From Escherichia coli (GTDB lineage: Bacteria > Pseudomonadota > Gammaproteobacteria > Enterobacterales > Enterobacteriaceae): 64,000 bases of DNA. The stretch lies in NCBI RefSeq assembly GCF_003790525.1, contig NZ_CP033635.1; one strand, written 5' to 3'. The translations under genes were made by a program, and so were the position numbers. Below are positions 23,606 to 31,912 of this stretch, piece after piece. Each line of letters opens with the position of its first letter. Positions within the stretch are counted from its first letter, which is position 1. The notes under the pieces are model-generated. The model saw only the letters and a program-made list of their open reading frames with translations, was not told where the DNA came from and searched no databases.

Positions 23606-24256
23606 TCAGAAAATGCGCTCCTGATGCACCCATACCGCAGCTTCCACGCGAGACTTGAGCTTCATTTTCTTCAGCATGTGCTTGACGTGCACTTTTACTG
23701 TGCTTTCGGTGATATCCAGGCGGCGGGCAATCATCTTGTTCGGCAAACCCTGGGCAATCAGCTTGAGAATATCGCGCTCGCGTGGGGTTAACTGGTTAAC
23801 ATCGCGTTCAGTAGTGGCACGGTTAGCGCGCAAGCTGGCGGCCAGAACAGGCGTTAATGCTTCGCTTAATACCATTTCGCCAGCAGCTGCCTGATGCAAT
23901 GCTTTCAGCAGATCTTCCGGTTCCATATCTTTTAACAGATAGCCATCCGCGCCGCGTTTCAGTGCGGTGACCACATCTTCTTCATGGTTAGAGACGCTGA
24001 ATACCACAATGCGACCGGAGAGGGACTTTTCGCGCAGTTTATCCAGCGTTTCCAGACCGTTCATGCCGGGCATATTGAGATCTAACAGGATCAGATCGGG
24101 ATCAAGAGATTCCGCCAGTTCAATACCCTGTTCGCCATTACTCGCTTCGCCAACCACGGTGATATCTGGTGCCATACTGATAAGCTGTTTTACGCCAGTT
24201 CGCAGCATCGGGTGATCGTCGATCAGCAGGATAGTAGCCGGTTCCTGATTACTCAT
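23606..24256 (-). CDS. narL: Nitrate/nitrite response regulator NarL
   Basis: ORF track 23606..24370; trimmed to [24 protein letters not shown], 216 aa. Confidence 0.95.
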
Positions 24257-26045
24257 GGGTATCTCCTTGGACGTCTGTGAAAGTTTTTTCGGGAATAAAG
24301 GTGACAACCACTTCGGTGCCACCTGATTCACGACGGCGGACGCGGCAATCGCCTCGTAAACTTTGCGCACGGTCGCGCATTATTATCATGCCGTAGTGAT
24401 TGCTGCGGATGGCATTTTCAGGCACGCCGCAGCCGTTATCCTGGACGGTCAGTTTGACCTGATTATCGTTTTGCGCCACCGTCACCACGACCTCACTCGC
24501 TTGCGAATGTTTGAGGGCGTTACTTAATGCCTCACGGGCAATTTGCAACAAGTGGATTGCCTGATGCGAAGGCACCAGACGAGGCGGCAATTGATAATCC
24601 AGCTTCACCGGGAAGCCAAATTTGGCGCTGTACTCTTCGCAACTCGCCTCCAGCGCCGGACGTAATCCAGGCTCGGTGAGCTGCAAACGGAATGTGGTGA
24701 GCAATTCACGCAACTGCGCCCAGGATGCATTCAGTTCGTTACGGATCTGACTTAACAGTTCGCGGCTGCTTTCTGGCAGCGCATCGCCCTGCATCTGTAA
24801 ACAACTCACCTGCATCTTCATGCAAGAGAGAGATTGGGCAATAGAATCATGCAGTTCGCGCGCAATGGTGGCACGCTCTTCCATCACGATCAACTGTTGC
24901 TGACGTTCCTGATGGCGATCCAGCGCCAGCGTGGCGGTGAGTTGTTCAACCAGGGTATCCACCAGTTGTTGTTGATCATGGCTAAGATGACGCCCCTGCG
25001 GCAGGGTCGCCAGCAAAATACCGTACTGCGTATGAGAGTCAGCCAGCCGCCACTTCAGGGTTGTGCCGCGATCGCCAACGGGTAATATGCCGCGCGGGCA
25101 GAGCTGGCAGCCTTTATCATCACAAGTCATATCTGGCTGGCAGGTAAACTCCTGATGATTCTCTTCATCATCAGTGTCATACACCCGCAGTTCGATATCA
25201 CGTAGCAGGGTTAAATTCTGTAAGCCGTTGAGTACCGGTGACAGGCGTTCACACAGCGGGGCGCGGGAATGCAAACGGCGGTTAGCCTGCCATAAAAAAG
25301 AGAGGATCTGATTTTTATGCTCCAGCCCGGCAGTTTTCTCCTGAACCCGCTGCTCAAGTACGGCATAACTTTCGGCCAGTTCTGCAGACATATTGTTCAA
25401 TGCAGTTCCAAGCATCGCCATTTCGTTGCGCCCGCTGATGTTTGCGCGTTGGGTAAAATCGCGATGGCTGACGGCACTCGCCATTGCCAGCAGTTGCCGC
25501 CACGGTTGTAGCAGTCGCGCCCGCAACCAGATAATAGTGAACACCAGTAAAAGTGCCATAAATACCGCCATTACCCGATGGACCAGTACCACTGTCTCAA
25601 TGCGCATTTCCGTGGTGCGGTCAAAACCAGATACCAGCTGATCAAGCCCGGCAACAAACTGGCTGACATCCGCTGACACCGTTTCGCGGTTTTGTGCACG
25701 CATCAGCGCAGGGATCAGTTCATTACGCCAGTAATCTTGTAAACCCTGTAATTGCGCCAGTTGTCCGTCTCGTTCCGCTGCTCGAGTCAACTCGGCGCTA
25801 AATGCCGTTTGTTCCATTTCTTTAATTAAGGGCTTGTCTTTCTCGCTTAATGGCACTGCCGCCAACAGACGGTAACTTTGCATGCGCAGCGATCCCGCTT
25901 TGTTGATCGCATGGGCGCTGCCCTGAACGCCTTGCACCAGCCAGCCAGAAACTGCCATCCCTGCCAGTCCAATAGCAGTAGAAAGCAACACAATAAGCGC
26001 AACCTGATTAACCAGGGTGAGCGGAGAGAGACAACGTTTAAGCAT
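24249..26045 (-). CDS. narX: Nitrate/nitrite sensor histidine kinase NarX
   Basis: ORF track; 598 aa; overlaps narL start. Confidence 0.95.
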
Positions 26046-26310
26046 GTAAACCTCTTCCTTCGGGCTTTAAATGAGCAATAACCTTAATGAATGTGACGAT
26101 ACATTCTGGAATGGCAGTATTCTCGGCTATTGGCTGAAGTATACCCATACCCGGAAAGAGTTACTCCTTATTTGCCGCGTGGTTAGTCGCTTTACATCGG
26201 TAAGGGTAGGGATTTTACAGCACCGTGAAAAATCTCATAATTTTTATGAAATCACTGTACTCACTATGGGTAATGATAAATATCAATGATAGATAAAGTT
26301 ATCTTATCGT

Positions 26311-26324
26311 TTGATTTACATCAA
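26311..26324. promoter_or_regulatory. FNR-type box (TTGAT-N4-ATCAA) in narK promoter region
   Basis: ttgatttacatcaa read directly, about 60 nt upstream of narK start. Confidence 0.6.
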
Positions 26325-26383
26325 ATTGCCTTTAGCTACAGACACTAAGGTGGCAGACATCGAAACGAGTATCAGAGGTGTCT

Positions 26384-27775
26384 ATGAGTCACTCATCCGC
26401 CCCCGAAAGGGCTACTGGAGCTGTCATTACAGATTGGCGACCGGAAGATCCTGCGTTCTGGCAACAACGCGGTCAACGTATTGCCAGCCGCAACCTGTGG
26501 ATTTCCGTTCCCTGTCTGCTGCTGGCGTTTTGCGTATGGATGTTGTTCAGCGCTGTTGCGGTGAACTTACCGAAAGTCGGTTTTAATTTTACGACCGATC
26601 AGCTATTTATGTTGACTGCGCTGCCTTCGGTTTCTGGCGCGTTATTACGTGTTCCATACTCCTTTATGGTTCCTATCTTCGGTGGTCGTCGCTGGACGGC
26701 GTTCAGCACCGGTATTCTGATTATTCCTTGCGTCTGGCTGGGTTTTGCCGTGCAGGATACCTCCACGCCTTATAGCGTCTTCATCATCATCTCTCTGCTG
26801 TGCGGCTTTGCTGGCGCGAACTTCGCATCCAGTATGGCAAACATCAGCTTCTTCTTTCCGAAACAGAAGCAGGGTGGCGCGCTGGGTCTGAATGGTGGTC
26901 TGGGCAACATGGGCGTCAGCGTCATGCAGTTGGTTGCTCCGCTGGTGGTATCACTGTCGATTTTCGCAGTATTTGGTAGCCAGGGTGTCAAACAGCCGGA
27001 TGGGACTGAGCTGTATCTGGCGAATGCGTCCTGGGTATGGGTGCCGTTCCTTGCCATCTTCACCATTGCGGCGTGGTTTGGCATGAACGATCTTGCTACC
27101 TCGAAAGCCTCCATCAAGGAGCAGTTGCCGGTACTCAAACGGGGTCATCTGTGGATTATGAGCCTGCTGTATCTGGCAACCTTCGGCTCCTTCATCGGCT
27201 TCTCCGCGGGCTTTGCGATGCTGTCAAAAACGCAGTTCCCGGATGTTCAGATTCTGCAATACGCTTTCTTCGGGCCGTTTATTGGTGCGCTGGCGCGTTC
27301 TGCAGGTGGCGCATTATCTGACCGTCTGGGCGGAACTCGTGTCACGCTGGTGAACTTTATCCTGATGGCGATTTTCAGCGGCCTGCTGTTCCTGACCTTA
27401 CCGACTGACGGACAGGGCGGAAGCTTCATGGCGTTCTTCGCAGTCTTCCTGGCGCTGTTCCTGACAGCTGGGCTGGGTAGTGGTTCCACTTTCCAGATGA
27501 TTTCCGTGATCTTCCGTAAACTGACAATGGATCGCGTGAAAGCAGAAGGGGGTTCTGACGAACGTGCGATGCGTGAAGCGGCAACCGACACGGCGGCGGC
27601 GCTGGGTTTCATCTCTGCGATTGGCGCGATTGGTGGCTTCTTTATCCCGAAAGCGTTTGGTAGCTCGCTGGCATTAACGGGTTCGCCAGTCGGCGCAATG
27701 AAAGTATTTTTGATTTTCTATATCGCCTGCGTGGTGATTACCTGGGCGGTATATGGTCGGCATTCTAAAAAATAA
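26384..27775 (+). CDS. narK: Nitrate/nitrite transporter NarK (MFS)
   Basis: ORF track 26378..27775; trimmed to ATG giving MSHSSAPERATGAVITDW, 463 aa. Confidence 0.95.
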   Translation: MSHSSAPERATGAVITDWRPEDPAFWQQRGQRIASRNLWISVPCLLLAFCVWMLFSAVAVNLPKVGFNFTTDQLFMLTALPSVSGALLRVPYSFMVPIFGGRRWTAFSTGILIIPCVWLGFAVQDTSTPYSVFIIISLLCGFAGANFASSMANISFFFPKQKQGGALGLNGGLGNMGVSVMQLVAPLVVSLSIFAVFGSQGVKQPDGTELYLANASWVWVPFLAIFTIAAWFGMNDLATSKASIKEQLPVLKRGHLWIMSLLYLATFGSFIGFSAGFAMLSKTQFPDVQILQYAFFGPFIGALARSAGGALSDRLGGTRVTLVNFILMAIFSGLLFLTLPTDGQGGSFMAFFAVFLALFLTAGLGSGSTFQMISVIFRKLTMDRVKAEGGSDERAMREAATDTAAALGFISAIGAIGGFFIPKAFGSSLALTGSPVGAMKVFLIFYIACVVITWAVYGRHSKK

Positions 27776-27900
27776 ATCTTAATATTTGATTATCCTTTGC
27801 GCGGCATGATGTCGCGCTTTTTTTATGCGTCATTTAGTTACAACATACTCATATTATATTGGCTTATTTCGCCGGATTTCATTAAGAGCCATTAATATGT

Positions 27901-27930
27901 TACCCATGGGGAATACTCCTTAATACCCAT
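27901..27930. promoter_or_regulatory. Cluster of NarL-type heptamers (TACYYMT) upstream of narG
   Basis: tacccat / tactcct / tacccat heptamers read directly about 250 nt upstream of narG start. Confidence 0.5.
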
Positions 27931-28063
27931 CTGCATAAAAATCTTAATAGTTTAAATAACTACAGGTATAAAACGTCTTAATTTACAGCGTGTTATGCTG
28001 TAACTGCTAATTATCCTAAAGGGGTATCTTAGGAATTTACTTTATTTTTCATCCCCATCACTC

Positions 28064-28077
28064 TTGATCGTTATCAA
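28064..28077. promoter_or_regulatory. FNR-type box (TTGAT-N4-ATCAA) of the narG promoter
   Basis: ttgatcgttatcaa read directly about 95 nt upstream of narG ATG. Confidence 0.65.
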
Positions 28078-28168
28078 TTCTCACGCTGTTTCAGAGCGTT
28101 ACTTTGCCCTTAAACATTAGCAATGTCGATTTATCAGAGGGCCGACAGGCTCCCACAGGAGAAAACCG

Positions 28169-31100
28169 ATGAGTAAATTCCTGGACCGGTTTCGCTACTT
28201 CAAACAGAAGGGTGAAACCTTTGCCGATGGGCATGGCCAGCTTCTCAATACCAACCGCGACTGGGAGGATGGATATCGCCAGCGTTGGCAGCATGACAAA
28301 ATCGTCCGCTCTACCCACGGGGTAAACTGCACCGGCTCCTGCAGCTGGAAAATCTACGTCAAAAACGGTCTGGTGACCTGGGAAACCCAGCAGACTGACT
28401 ATCCGCGTACTCGCCCGGACCTGCCAAACCATGAACCTCGCGGCTGCCCGCGCGGTGCCAGCTACTCCTGGTATCTTTACAGCGCCAACCGCCTGAAATA
28501 CCCAATGATGCGCAAACGCCTGATGAAAATGTGGCGTGAAGCGAAGGCGCTGCATAGCGATCCGGTTGAGGCATGGGCTTCTATCATTGAAGACGCCGAT
28601 AAAGCGAAAAGCTTTAAGCAGGCGCGTGGACGCGGTGGTTTTGTTCGTTCTTCCTGGCAGGAAGTGAATGAACTGATCGCCGCCTCTAACGTTTACACCA
28701 TCAAAAACTACGGCCCGGACCGCGTCGCTGGCTTCTCGCCAATTCCGGCAATGTCGATGGTTTCTTACGCATCGGGTGCACGCTATCTTTCGCTGATTGG
28801 CGGTACTTGCTTAAGCTTCTACGACTGGTACTGCGACCTGCCTCCTGCGTCTCCGCAAACCTGGGGCGAGCAAACTGACGTACCGGAATCTGCTGACTGG
28901 TACAACTCCAGCTACATCATCGCCTGGGGTTCAAACGTGCCGCAGACGCGTACCCCGGATGCTCACTTCTTTACTGAAGTGCGTTACAAAGGCACCAAAA
29001 CTGTTGCCGTCACACCAGACTACGCTGAAATCGCCAAACTGTGCGATCTGTGGCTGGCACCGAAACAGGGCACCGATGCGGCAATGGCGCTGGCAATGGG
29101 TCACGTAATGCTGCGTGAATTCCACCTCGACAACCCAAGCCAGTATTTCACCGACTATGTGCGTCGCTACACCGACATGCCGATGCTGGTGATGCTGGAA
29201 GAACGCGACGGTTACTACGCCGCAGGTCGTATGCTGCGCGCTGCCGATCTGGTGGATGCGCTGGGCCAGGAAAACAATCCGGAATGGAAAACTGTCGCCT
29301 TTAATACCAATGGCGAAATGGTTGCGCCGAACGGTTCTATTGGCTTCCGCTGGGGCGAGAAGGGCAAATGGAATCTTGAGCAGCGCGACGGCAAAACTGG
29401 CGAAGAAACCGAGCTGCAACTGAGCCTGCTGGGTAGCCAGGATGAGATCGCTGAGGTGGGCTTCCCGTACTTTGGTGGCGACGGCACGGAACACTTCAAC
29501 AAAGTGGAACTGGAAAACGTGCTGCTGCACAAGCTGCCGGTGAAACGCTTGCAACTGGCTGATGGCAGCACCGCCCTGGTGACCACCGTTTATGATCTGA
29601 CGCTGGCAAACTATGGTCTGGAACGTGGCCTGAACGACGTTAACTGTGCAGCCAGCTATGACGATGTGAAAGCTTACACTCCGGCGTGGGCCGAGCAAAT
29701 CACTGGCGTTTCTCGCAGCCAGATTATTCGCATCGCCCGTGAATTTGCCGATAACGCTGATAAAACGCACGGTCGTTCGATGATTATCGTCGGTGCGGGA
29801 CTGAACCACTGGTATCACCTGGACATGAACTATCGTGGTCTGATCAACATGCTGATTTTCTGCGGCTGTGTCGGTCAGAGCGGGGGGGGCTGGGCGCACT
29901 ATGTAGGTCAGGAAAAACTGCGTCCGCAAACCGGCTGGCAGCCGCTGGCGTTTGCCCTCGACTGGCAGCGTCCGGCGCGTCACATGAACAGTACCTCTTA
30001 TTTCTATAACCACTCCAGCCAGTGGCGTTATGAAACCGTGACTGCGGAAGAACTGCTGTCGCCGATGGCGGATAAATCTCGCTATACCGGGCACTTGATC
30101 GACTTTAACGTCCGTGCAGAACGCATGGGCTGGCTGCCGTCTGCGCCGCAGTTAGGCACTAACCCGCTGACTATCGCTCGCGAAGCAGAAAAAGCCGGGA
30201 TGAATCCGGTGGACTATACGGTGAAATCCCTGAAAGAGGGTTCTATCCGTTTCGCTGCGGAACAGCCGGAAAACGGTAAAAACCACCCGCGTAATCTGTT
30301 CATCTGGCGTTCTAACCTGCTCGGTTCTTCCGGTAAAGGTCATGAGTTTATGCTCAAGTACCTGCTGGGGACGGAGCACGGTATCCAGGGCAAAGACCTG
30401 GGGCAGCAGGGCGGCGTGAAGCCGGAAGAAGTGGACTGGCAGGACAACGGTCTGGAAGGCAAGCTGGATCTGGTGGTGACGCTGGACTTCCGTCTGTCGA
30501 GCACCTGTCTCTATTCCGACATCATTTTGCCGACGGCGACCTGGTACGAAAAAGACGACATGAATACTTCGGATATGCATCCGTTTATTCACCCGCTGTC
30601 TGCGGCGGTCGATCCGGCCTGGGAAGCGAAAAGCGACTGGGAAATCTACAAAGCCATTGCGAAGAAATTCTCCGAAGTGTGCGTTGGTCATCTGGGTAAA
30701 GAAACTGACATCGTCACGCTGCCGATCCAGCACGACTCTGCCGCTGAACTGGCGCAGCCGCTGGATGTGAAAGACTGGAAAAAAGGCGAATGCGACCTGA
30801 TCCCAGGCAAAACTGCACCGCACATTATGGTCGTAGAGCGCGATTATCCGGCAACTTACGAACGCTTTACCTCTATCGGCCCGCTGATGGAGAAAATCGG
30901 TAACGGCGGTAAAGGGATTGCCTGGAACACCCAGAGCGAGATGGATCTGCTGCGTAAGCTCAACTACACCAAAGCGGAAGGTCCGGCGAAAGGCCAGCCG
31001 ATGCTGAACACCGCAATTGATGCGGCAGAGATGATCCTGACGCTGGCACCGGAAACCAACGGTCAGGTAGCTGTAAAAGCCTGGGCTGCCCTGAGCGAGT

Positions 31101-31912
31101 TTACCGGCCGTGATCATACGCATCTGGCGCTGAATAAAGAAGACGAGAAGATTCGCTTCCGCGATATTCAGGCACAGCCGCGCAAAATCATCTCCAGCCC
31201 GACATGGTCTGGCCTGGAAGATGAACACGTTTCTTACAACGCCGGTTACACCAACGTTCACGAGCTGATCCCGTGGCGTACGCTCTCTGGCCGTCAGCAG
31301 CTGTATCAGGATCACCAATGGATGCGTGATTTCGGTGAAAGCCTGCTGGTTTATCGTCCGCCGATCGACACCCGTTCGGTGAAAGAAGTGATGGGCCAGA
31401 AATCTAACGGTAATCCGGAAAAAGCGCTCAACTTCCTGACACCGCACCAGAAGTGGGGTATCCACTCCACCTACAGCGACAACCTGCTGATGCTGACTTT
31501 AGGTCGCGGTGGTCCGGTGGTCTGGTTGAGTGAAGCCGATGCCAAAGAGCTGGGTATCGCCGACAACGACTGGATTGAAGTCTTCAACAGCAACGGTGCA
31601 TTGACTGCCCGTGCGGTTGTCAGCCAGCGTGTTCCGGCAGGGATGACCATGATGTACCACGCGCAGGAACGTATCGTTAACCTGCCTGGTTCGGAAATTA
31701 CCCAACAGCGTGGTGGTATCCATAACTCGGTCACCCGTATCACGCCGAAACCGACGCATATGATCGGCGGCTATGCCCATCTGGCATACGGCTTTAACTA
31801 CTACGGCACCGTAGGTTCTAACCGCGATGAGTTTGTTGTAGTGCGTAAGATGAAGAACATTGACTGGTTAGATGGCGAAGGCAATGACCAGGTACAGGAG
31901 AGCGTAAAATGA
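28169..31912 (+). CDS. narG: Respiratory nitrate reductase 1 alpha subunit
   Basis: ORF track; 1247 aa, MSKFLDRFRYFKQKGETFADGHG, molybdopterin oxidoreductase. Confidence 0.97.
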   Translation: MSKFLDRFRYFKQKGETFADGHGQLLNTNRDWEDGYRQRWQHDKIVRSTHGVNCTGSCSWKIYVKNGLVTWETQQTDYPRTRPDLPNHEPRGCPRGASYSWYLYSANRLKYPMMRKRLMKMWREAKALHSDPVEAWASIIEDADKAKSFKQARGRGGFVRSSWQEVNELIAASNVYTIKNYGPDRVAGFSPIPAMSMVSYASGARYLSLIGGTCLSFYDWYCDLPPASPQTWGEQTDVPESADWYNSSYIIAWGSNVPQTRTPDAHFFTEVRYKGTKTVAVTPDYAEIAKLCDLWLAPKQGTDAAMALAMGHVMLREFHLDNPSQYFTDYVRRYTDMPMLVMLEERDGYYAAGRMLRAADLVDALGQENNPEWKTVAFNTNGEMVAPNGSIGFRWGEKGKWNLEQRDGKTGEETELQLSLLGSQDEIAEVGFPYFGGDGTEHFNKVELENVLLHKLPVKRLQLADGSTALVTTVYDLTLANYGLERGLNDVNCAASYDDVKAYTPAWAEQITGVSRSQIIRIAREFADNADKTHGRSMIIVGAGLNHWYHLDMNYRGLINMLIFCGCVGQSGGGWAHYVGQEKLRPQTGWQPLAFALDWQRPARHMNSTSYFYNHSSQWRYETVTAEELLSPMADKSRYTGHLIDFNVRAERMGWLPSAPQLGTNPLTIAREAEKAGMNPVDYTVKSLKEGSIRFAAEQPENGKNHPRNLFIWRSNLLGSSGKGHEFMLKYLLGTEHGIQGKDLGQQGGVKPEEVDWQDNGLEGKLDLVVTLDFRLSSTCLYSDIILPTATWYEKDDMNTSDMHPFIHPLSAAVDPAWEAKSDWEIYKAIAKKFSEVCVGHLGKETDIVTLPIQHDSAAELAQPLDVKDWKKGECDLIPGKTAPHIMVVERDYPATYERFTSIGPLMEKIGNGGKGIAWNTQSEMDLLRKLNYTKAEGPAKGQPMLNTAIDAAEMILTLAPETNGQVAVKAWAALSEFTGRDHTHLALNKEDEKIRFRDIQAQPRKIISSPTWSGLEDEHVSYNAGYTNVHELIPWRTLSGRQQLYQDHQWMRDFGESLLVYRPPIDTRSVKEVMGQKSNGNPEKALNFLTPHQKWGIHSTYSDNLLMLTLGRGGPVVWLSEADAKELGIADNDWIEVFNSNGALTARAVVSQRVPAGMTMMYHAQERIVNLPGSEITQQRGGIHNSVTRITPKPTHMIGGYAHLAYGFNYYGTVGSNRDEFVVVRKMKNIDWLDGEGNDQVQESVK

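Follow-up and report, generated by a model that had tools for sequence, protein, structure and literature searches.

Conserved FNR and NarL control sites upstream of narK and narG in an environmental Escherichia coli strain, and their neighbors TerD and NarS

Do the regions upstream of narK and narG in this E. coli strain retain the anaerobic, nitrate-dependent control known from K-12, and which of the motifs found there belong to that control? We addressed this question for positions 26046 to 28168 of a stretch of 64,000 nucleotides, referred to here in its entirety as the window. A preliminary description of this segment, made from the sequence alone, had recognized FNR-type boxes upstream of both genes and a cluster of NarL-type heptamers upstream of narG. 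The segment matches E. coli SMS-3-5 (NC_010498.1) with 100% identity; nearly all of the remaining complete E. coli genomes (5415/5426) carry it at 97.6 to 98.8% identity. RefSeq lists ychO, narL, narX, narK, narG, narH, narJ, and narI, in this order, on the identical SMS-3-5 record, which agrees with the names narK and narG in the preliminary description. The segment comprises the spacer between the divergent narX and narK genes, the narK gene, and the 393-bp intergenic region between narK and narG. For comparison across species, a degenerate pattern representing the first 50 nt of narG was used to collect 120 narG loci from different Enterobacteriaceae species, 117 of which were usable for scoring the FNR box, while the narK comparison comprised 49 species. 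The alignments upstream of narG had a median identity of only 55%, yet they contained discrete conserved islands at the positions of a replication terminus (Ter) site, NarL heptamers, the candidate IHF core, a second NarL site, the FNR box, the -10 element, and the 5' untranslated region (Table 1).

Table 1. Genes and control elements in and around the narK and narG control regions. Positions are those of the window; negative numbers are relative to the predicted +1 of the respective gene.
Feature	Position	Strand	Details
narL	23606-24256	-	RefSeq, identical record
narX	24249-26045	-	RefSeq, identical record
narK upstream heptamers TACTTCA and TACCCAT, abutting	26135-26148		TACTTCA on - strand, 1 mismatch, -221; TACCCAT on + strand, -214; heptamer scan
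narK heptamer TACTCCT	26162-26168	+	-194; conserved
Candidate IHF core upstream of narK, TATGAGATTTTTC	26227-26239	-	centre -126; 2 mismatches to WATCARN4TTR; putative
narK inverted heptamer pair TACTCAC-T-ATGGGTA	26258-26272		-98/-90; conserved in 49 species
Second, weaker FNR-like site near narK, ATGATAAATATCAA	26273-26286		-79.5; 38 bp upstream of main box centre
narK FNR box, TTGATTTACATCAA	26311-26324		centre -41.5; perfect consensus; identical to K-12 ChIP-seq site
narK -10-like hexamer TAAGGT	26346-26351	+	conserved; predicted +1 at 26359
narK, nitrate/nitrite transporter CDS	26384-27775	+	RefSeq, identical record
NarS, narK 3' end	27764-27824	+	seed ~27786-27798; terminator stem 27799-27817; T-run 27818-27824
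TerD, Tus-binding Ter site, TATGAGTATGTTGTAACTAAATG	27831-27853	-	reads 27853-27831; G6 pairs with C at 27848
narG distal NarL heptamers TACCCAT / TACTCCT / TACCCAT	27901-27907 / 27914-27920 / 27924-27930	+	-208 / -195 / -185
Candidate IHF core upstream of narG, TTACAGCGTGTTA	27983-27995	+	centre -123; 2 mismatches; putative
narG proximal NarL site, degenerate TTATCCT (+), 2-bp spacer, consensus TACCCCT (-)	28011-28026		TACCCCT at 28020-28026, -89
narG FNR box, TTGATCGTTATCAA	28064-28077		centre -41.5; perfect consensus; identical to K-12 ChIP-seq site
narG -10 hexamer TACTTT (K-12 TACCTT)	28100-28105	+	predicted +1 at 28112
narG 5' untranslated region	28112-28168	+	almost invariant from 28120 on
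narG	28169-31912	+	RefSeq, identical record; ATG at 28169

Both FNR boxes have the form TTGAT-N4-ATCAA and lie at exactly the coordinates given in the preliminary description. They are the only perfect matches to TTGATN4ATCAA in the window, where 0.11 would be expected, and two or more such matches occurred in none of 100 shuffles of the window. To grade the two sites, we used a position weight matrix (PWM) derived from 59 K-12 FNR sites supported by chromatin immunoprecipitation sequencing (ChIP-seq) (Myers et al. 2013, Table S6), from which copies of both boxes had been excluded. On this leave-out matrix, the narK box ranked first in the window with 20.3 bits of a maximum of 21.4, and the narG box tied for third rank with 14.5 bits, a score for which 0.52 chance matches are expected per 64 kb. 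The PWM scan that had been proposed as a check is therefore passed clearly by the narK box and only marginally by the narG box, which by this score alone does not stand above the window-wide background; the score is low because the matrix penalizes the CGTT spacer. On sequence grounds, we regard the narG box as secure despite its PWM score: its half-sites are perfect, it is placed in the 393-bp intergenic region, it is identical to a site detected by ChIP in K-12, and it is invariant across species.

The K-12 narK and narG sites are covered by FNR ChIP-seq peaks, are centered at -41.5, and confer FNR-dependent activation (Myers et al. 2013). We found that the narK box is the same 14-mer as the K-12 ChIP-seq site at 1277107 and the narG box the same 14-mer as the site at 1278982, and the K-12 coordinates map exactly onto both boxes of the window. 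The narK box was perfect in 49/49 species. At narG, the half-sites were perfect in 114 of 117 Enterobacteriaceae loci, whereas the 4-bp spacer took 11 different forms, a pattern indicating that the half-sites, but not the spacer, are under purifying selection. The FNR-like site at -79.5 of narK, which ranked fifth in the window on the same matrix (13.2 bits), was poorly conserved across genera and was not maintained outside Escherichia.

The +1 positions of narK and narG in Table 1 were inferred by adding 41.5 bp to the center of the respective FNR box. Hexamers that could serve as -10 elements, TAAGGT at narK and TACTTT at narG, are located where this geometry predicts them, and across species the narG element forms a conserved island reading GTTACnTT. 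A generic promoter scan missed both FNR-dependent promoters because of their poor -35 elements and yielded no excess of hits over shuffled sequence.

The NarL-type cluster described earlier, at 27901 to 27930, consists of three consensus heptamers and is the densest in the window. The reported distance of about 250 bp from narG holds if counted upstream from the ATG; counted from the predicted +1, the three heptamers are centered at the distances listed in Table 1. Heptamers matching TACYYMT number 49 in the window, compared with 32 expected. Of these 49, 8 lie in the nar intergenic regions (732 bp), where about 0.5 would be expected (Poisson P ~4e-8), which corresponds to an approximately 15-fold enrichment in both nar spacers. 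Three heptamers within 30 bp are the unique maximum of the window and were reached in 3 of 1000 shuffles; when the narK-narG spacer was shuffled, none of 2000 randomized sequences contained five or more.

If +1 is assumed to lie 41.5 bp from the FNR center, narG heptamers fall exactly at -195 and -89. Both regions are protected by phosphorylated NarL (NarL-P) in footprints, the -89 region being the high-affinity site, and narG is described as a promoter without 7-2-7 sites (Katsir et al. 2015). An inverted 7-2-7 arrangement was likewise not found here, neither at narG, where the left half of the proximal site is degenerate (TTATCCT), nor at narK, where the inverted pair is separated by a 1-bp spacer. 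In other genera, the narG proximal pair (-98/-89) is a clean palindromic 7-2-7 site. A consensus heptamer is present exactly at -195 in 83 of 111 narG loci, and the block comprising the -195 and -185 heptamers, TACYCCTTAATACC, is near-invariant and lies 150 bp from the FNR box in 78 of 90 loci; the -208 heptamer is not conserved outside Escherichia. Upstream of narK, the heptamers at -221 and -214 are identical in K-12 and lie within a block conserved in 49 species, and the heptamer at -194 shares the core TACTCCTTA with the narG heptamer at -195.

A requirement for IHF at narG is known from the literature, with a site at about -125 in K-12. In K-12 grown anaerobically without nitrate, IHF ChIP-chip gave a peak over the narX-narK spacer and none over narG. 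The best-placed candidates in the window have 2 mismatches to the IHF consensus WATCAANNNNTTR, which is accompanied by a 5' A/T tract. An IHF scan had been suggested as a further check; run with up to 2 mismatches, it returned 16.6 matches per kb and was not discriminating. The candidate core upstream of narK lies inside a conserved block (26225 to 26241). Upstream of narG, the diagnostic CA and TTA positions coincide with conserved columns and are preceded by an A/T tract, and we regard this CA...TTA pattern as the best candidate for the narG IHF core. Taken together, the FNR boxes and distal narG heptamers of the preliminary description stand, and its list of sites lacked the -89 NarL site, the IHF region, the NarL sites of narK, and two further elements in the narK-narG spacer, NarS and TerD.

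Upstream of -215, conservation is sharpest in a block, TAGTTACAACATACT, that contains a Ter site on the minus strand. We considered this block as a binding site for NarL, NsrR, ModE, ArcA, Fis, or TyrR and as a promoter on either strand, and rejected all of these assignments because the sequence does not fit. In the Ter 23-mer, positions 5 to 21 equal those of TerB, and G6 and the core at positions 8 to 18 (GTTGTAAC...) are intact; the exact Ter-core sequence GNRNGTTGTAACKA occurs once in the window, at this site. The K-12 allele at the same locus, CATTAGTATGTTGTAACTAAATG, which we take to be TerD, is identical at Ter positions 5 to 23 and differs from the window at the noncore positions 1 and 4. 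Judged by its locus, its sequence class, and the K-12 sequence, the site is TerD. TerD is one of ten primary Tus-Ter sites of E. coli, blocks counterclockwise forks, and lies outside open reading frames, a location that the K-12 site and the window site have in common; the K-12 site is bound by Tus in ChIP-seq, and its role has been called enigmatic. The terminus region of SMS-3-5 is inverted on the chromosome, and the window therefore matches the minus strand of that record. The GC skew of the plus strand is positive (+0.026, weak evidence from 64 kb only), and forks would therefore travel from left to right and meet the permissive, position-23 end of Ter first. TerD would thus be permissive for the normal fork and would arrest forks arriving from the right.

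Immediately to the left of TerD, the 3' end of narK has a conserved seed with an intrinsic terminator (27799 to 27824) behind it, which identifies this region as NarS. NarS is a small RNA derived from the narK 3' untranslated region, and it is lengthened in K-12 by an insertion (Wang et al. 2020). The gene is annotated as narS in NC_000913.3. From position 27781 through the terminator, the window has the K-12 narS sequence, and position, terminator, and seed region are as in K-12 and Salmonella. In contrast to K-12, whose annotated NarS is 184 nt long, the window lacks approximately 127 bp directly after the narK stop codon, so that its NarS is predicted to be about 61 nt long, similar to the 63-nt NarS-S of Salmonella. 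The 5 bases that follow the narK stop codon also differ from K-12, at the position of the K-12 insert. This insert holds the ERIC/IRU core, as recognized from ERIC primer sequences, and its junction is present in 2457 of 5426 complete E. coli genomes (~45%). An Rfam scan of positions 25500 to 28700 returned only sub-threshold chance matches and no match to a family for NarS. A match to the L20 leader (E = 0.067) represented merely the narK terminator, and a sub-threshold match to a eukaryotic long noncoding RNA was set aside as chance.

The presence of these two elements bears on how far the conservation upstream of narG can be attributed to narG control. Very probably, part of it instead serves replication termination at TerD or the function of NarS, given that the Ter site itself forms the sharpest island upstream of -215 and that a known small RNA lies at the 3' end of narK. 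The flagged FNR and NarL sites, however, form separate islands that are left untouched by this explanation. It is thus not a true rival for those motifs and limits only the upstream extent of what can be called the control region.

The distance between TerD and narG raised the possibility of a closer relationship. Of 109 Enterobacteriaceae species, 82 have a Ter core in the narK-narG spacer; its orientation never varies, and G6 is present in 85 of 85 cases. In at least 17 genera, Ter lies 226 to 229 bp upstream of the narG FNR box. The 62 to 65 bp between Ter and the -195 block show essentially no sequence conservation (mean pairwise identity, 0.36), and at these loci the FNR box and the ATG are 100 to 121 bp apart. 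Buttiauxella, Hafnia, Cedecea, Pseudocitrobacter, and most Raoultella lack Ter. In the Pseudocitrobacter, Buttiauxella, and Cedecea examples that we inspected, the narK terminator aligns at the usual position of Ter. The spacer between Ter and the NarL heptamers carries a CRP-like TGTGA-N6-TCAC sequence in some genera and none in E. coli; where present, such a site may explain part of the spacing constraint. We found no paper in the open-access literature that links TerD and narG. It strikes us as rather unlikely that TerD, instead of being an independent neighbor, belongs to the narG control region, or to a higher-order structure that both share, and is held in position as part of it. If it did, Tus bound at TerD might serve the NarL/IHF/FNR complex as an architectural element or as an insulator; in the reverse sense, Tus might stay on TerD only if the DNA separating the narK terminator from the narG promoter, which fires outward, is silent.

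The narK and narG promoters were also compared with those of K-12. At narK, where K-12 has an FNR site at -41.5 and NarL and IHF sites, the window differs by only 3 substitutions in 338 bp, none of them in a motif; at -108 (26251), K-12 has G and the window has A, the majority base across species. At narG, the FNR box, the consensus heptamers, the positions of the candidate IHF core, the spacing, and the 5' untranslated region are identical or equivalent. The narK-narG spacer differs by 13 substitutions and one large indel, with 9 of the substitutions located between -123 and -9 of the narG promoter. Among the 3 + 13 substitutions, none affects an FNR half-site or a heptamer, and the only conserved site position that is hit is position 4 of the narG -10 element. 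Seven of the single-nucleotide differences form a haplotype at 27989 to 28007: 2 alter the N4 of the putative narG IHF core, and 5 lie just downstream in nonconserved columns.

Such variants might signify a lineage-specific, quantitative change in narG regulation, brought about by the TACTTT -10 element, the seven-SNP haplotype, or the absence of the ERIC insert. The T at position 4 of the -10 element (28103) is indeed rare, occurring in 35 of 5426 complete E. coli genomes, including SMS-3-5, IAI39, and CE10, and C is kept at this position in 79% of species. The haplotype, which includes the two N4 changes, is present in 124 of the 5426 genomes. However, neither C nor T is the sigma-70 consensus base at position 4, and TACTTT is also found in Yokenella and Trabulsiella. 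The remaining SNPs lie in columns without cross-species conservation, and the ERIC insert is located upstream of the narK terminator, outside the -223 to +70 fragment that has been used as the full narG promoter. We therefore give a regulatory change of this kind only a slim chance.

Finally, although the heptamer consensus is short, degenerate, and common in the window, IHF-like matches are ubiquitous, and the narG box by PWM score alone is at background, there is next to no likelihood that the flagged motifs arose by chance in AT-rich intergenic DNA and regulate nothing, a reading effectively refuted by their conservation (invariant half-sites and variable spacers in more than 110 species) and by their identity with sites bound experimentally in K-12, quite apart from the placement of both perfect FNR boxes in nar promoters and the rarity of the heptamer cluster in window shuffles and composition-matched spacer shuffles.

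Almost certainly, then, judging from their sequence, narK and narGHJI are controlled by two parallel and already characterized class II FNR promoters, at which phospho-NarL acts as coactivator, assisted by a bend that IHF introduces. In the absence of oxygen, an FNR dimer would occupy TTGAT-N4-ATCAA, centered 41.5 bp upstream of each start, and contact RNA polymerase. In the presence of nitrate, NarX would phosphorylate NarL, which would then bind the heptamers near -90 (with high affinity at narG) and near -195, and IHF at about -123 (narG) or -126 (narK) would fold the distal NarL sites toward the promoter. The presence of the sites, their statistical excess, their identity with K-12, and the conservation of their sequence and spacing come from this analysis, while occupancy and activation are taken from the K-12 literature. 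The anaerobic, nitrate-dependent architecture proposed in the preliminary description thus coincides with the K-12 FNR ChIP-seq sites and NarL-P footprint regions, and sequence identity and conservation argue well for its view that the regulatory regions are intact. It was also right to call this architecture expected rather than novel: control of narK and narG of this type is textbook knowledge, and its occurrence in the window is already known and ordinary.

For the biology of the strain, the result means that an environmental E. coli of phylogroup F has retained narK and narGHJI under their canonical control by anaerobiosis and nitrate, which in itself matters little. Useful side results are a map of both promoters at base resolution, supported by a footprint from about 110 species; the recognition that the same stretch holds TerD and NarS; and three strain-level variants, namely, a rare -10 allele, a haplotype adjacent to the IHF core, and a NarS without the ERIC insert. 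If the spacing between TerD and narG is functional, an enigmatic replication-terminus site would be tied to transcriptional architecture.

Alignment of the narK-narG region from 114 species revealed an invariant 15-nt island, and this island marks a Ter site of the Tus-binding class, TerD (see table). The site was not part of the preliminary description of this region. In at least 17 genera, the Ter core lies 226 to 229 bp from the narG FNR box (27835-28077 in the window; loci L003 to L122, each from a different species of Enterobacteriaceae), and despite this fixed overall distance, the stretch contains a 62- to 65-bp spacer that is unconserved. In several non-Escherichia genera (L004, L006, L016, and L026), a CRP-like motif, TGTGA-N6-TC(A/G)C, is located approximately 35 bp upstream of the −195 block of NarL heptamers, within the spacer that separates this block from Ter; no counterpart of the motif was found in this spacer in E. 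coli. One contig, L105, is labelled Chryseobacterium sp. yet carries a typical enterobacterial narK-Ter-narG region, probably reflecting contamination of the assembly or mislabelling.

Coordinates of features in the window
Feature	Position	Strand	Location	Remark
Promoter-like element TTTACA-16-CATAAT	26214-26241		narX-narK spacer	Conserved; 10/12 matches
NarS small RNA	27764-27824		narK 3' end	Encoded by narK 3' end
Ter site (TerD)	27831-27853	−	Between narK terminator and narG NarL sites	Tus-binding class
Substitution cluster	27989-28007		narG −123 to −105	7 substitutions
narG −10 hexamer	28100-28105			TACTTT
narG 5' untranslated region	28120-28168			Almost invariant
FNR match GTGATCTAAATCAA	45120-45133			18.2 bits
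FNR match ATGATTTAAATCAC	6771-6784			14.5 bits

Compared with K-12, the narG upstream region of the window strain carries clustered substitutions, some of which fall within the N4 of a candidate IHF core while the others adjoin it, and the same haplotype was detected in 124 of 5,426 complete E. coli genomes. The narG −10 hexamer differs from the TACCTT of K-12: its T allele is present in only 35 of these genomes (SMS-3-5, IAI39, CE10, and others), and the C allele is kept in 79% of species. The near invariance of the narG 5' untranslated region extends between genera, and an inverted repeat (GAGRGCC...GGCTCC) is situated there, directly upstream of the Shine-Dalgarno sequence.

Elsewhere in the window, the FNR position weight matrix gave two further matches with high scores. 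The higher-scoring one is probably the K-12 adhE/ychE ChIP site with one base altered. In the narX-narK spacer, a K-12 sigma-70 ChIP-seq summit (U00096.2 1277031) corresponds to about position 26235, 110 bp upstream of the FNR promoter of narK, and the promoter-like element at this location could represent a second promoter or overlap the candidate IHF site. Among the complete E. coli assemblies, 13 copies of the narK region are carried by plasmid-typed records.

Unlike the window strain, K-12 contains an ERIC-like insert of approximately 127 bp directly after the narK stop codon (positions 2031-2158 of the K-12 locus, L001), and the K-12-type insert junction is found in 2,457 of the 5,426 genomes. 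The 3' end of the insert, which is missing from the window, reads TTGCCG-18-TATATA (L001 2123-2152). Some 20 bp downstream from this sequence lies the mapped position of a strong K-12 sigma-70 ChIP-seq peak (U00096.2 1278711); in K-12, a short NarS may therefore be transcribed separately from narK.
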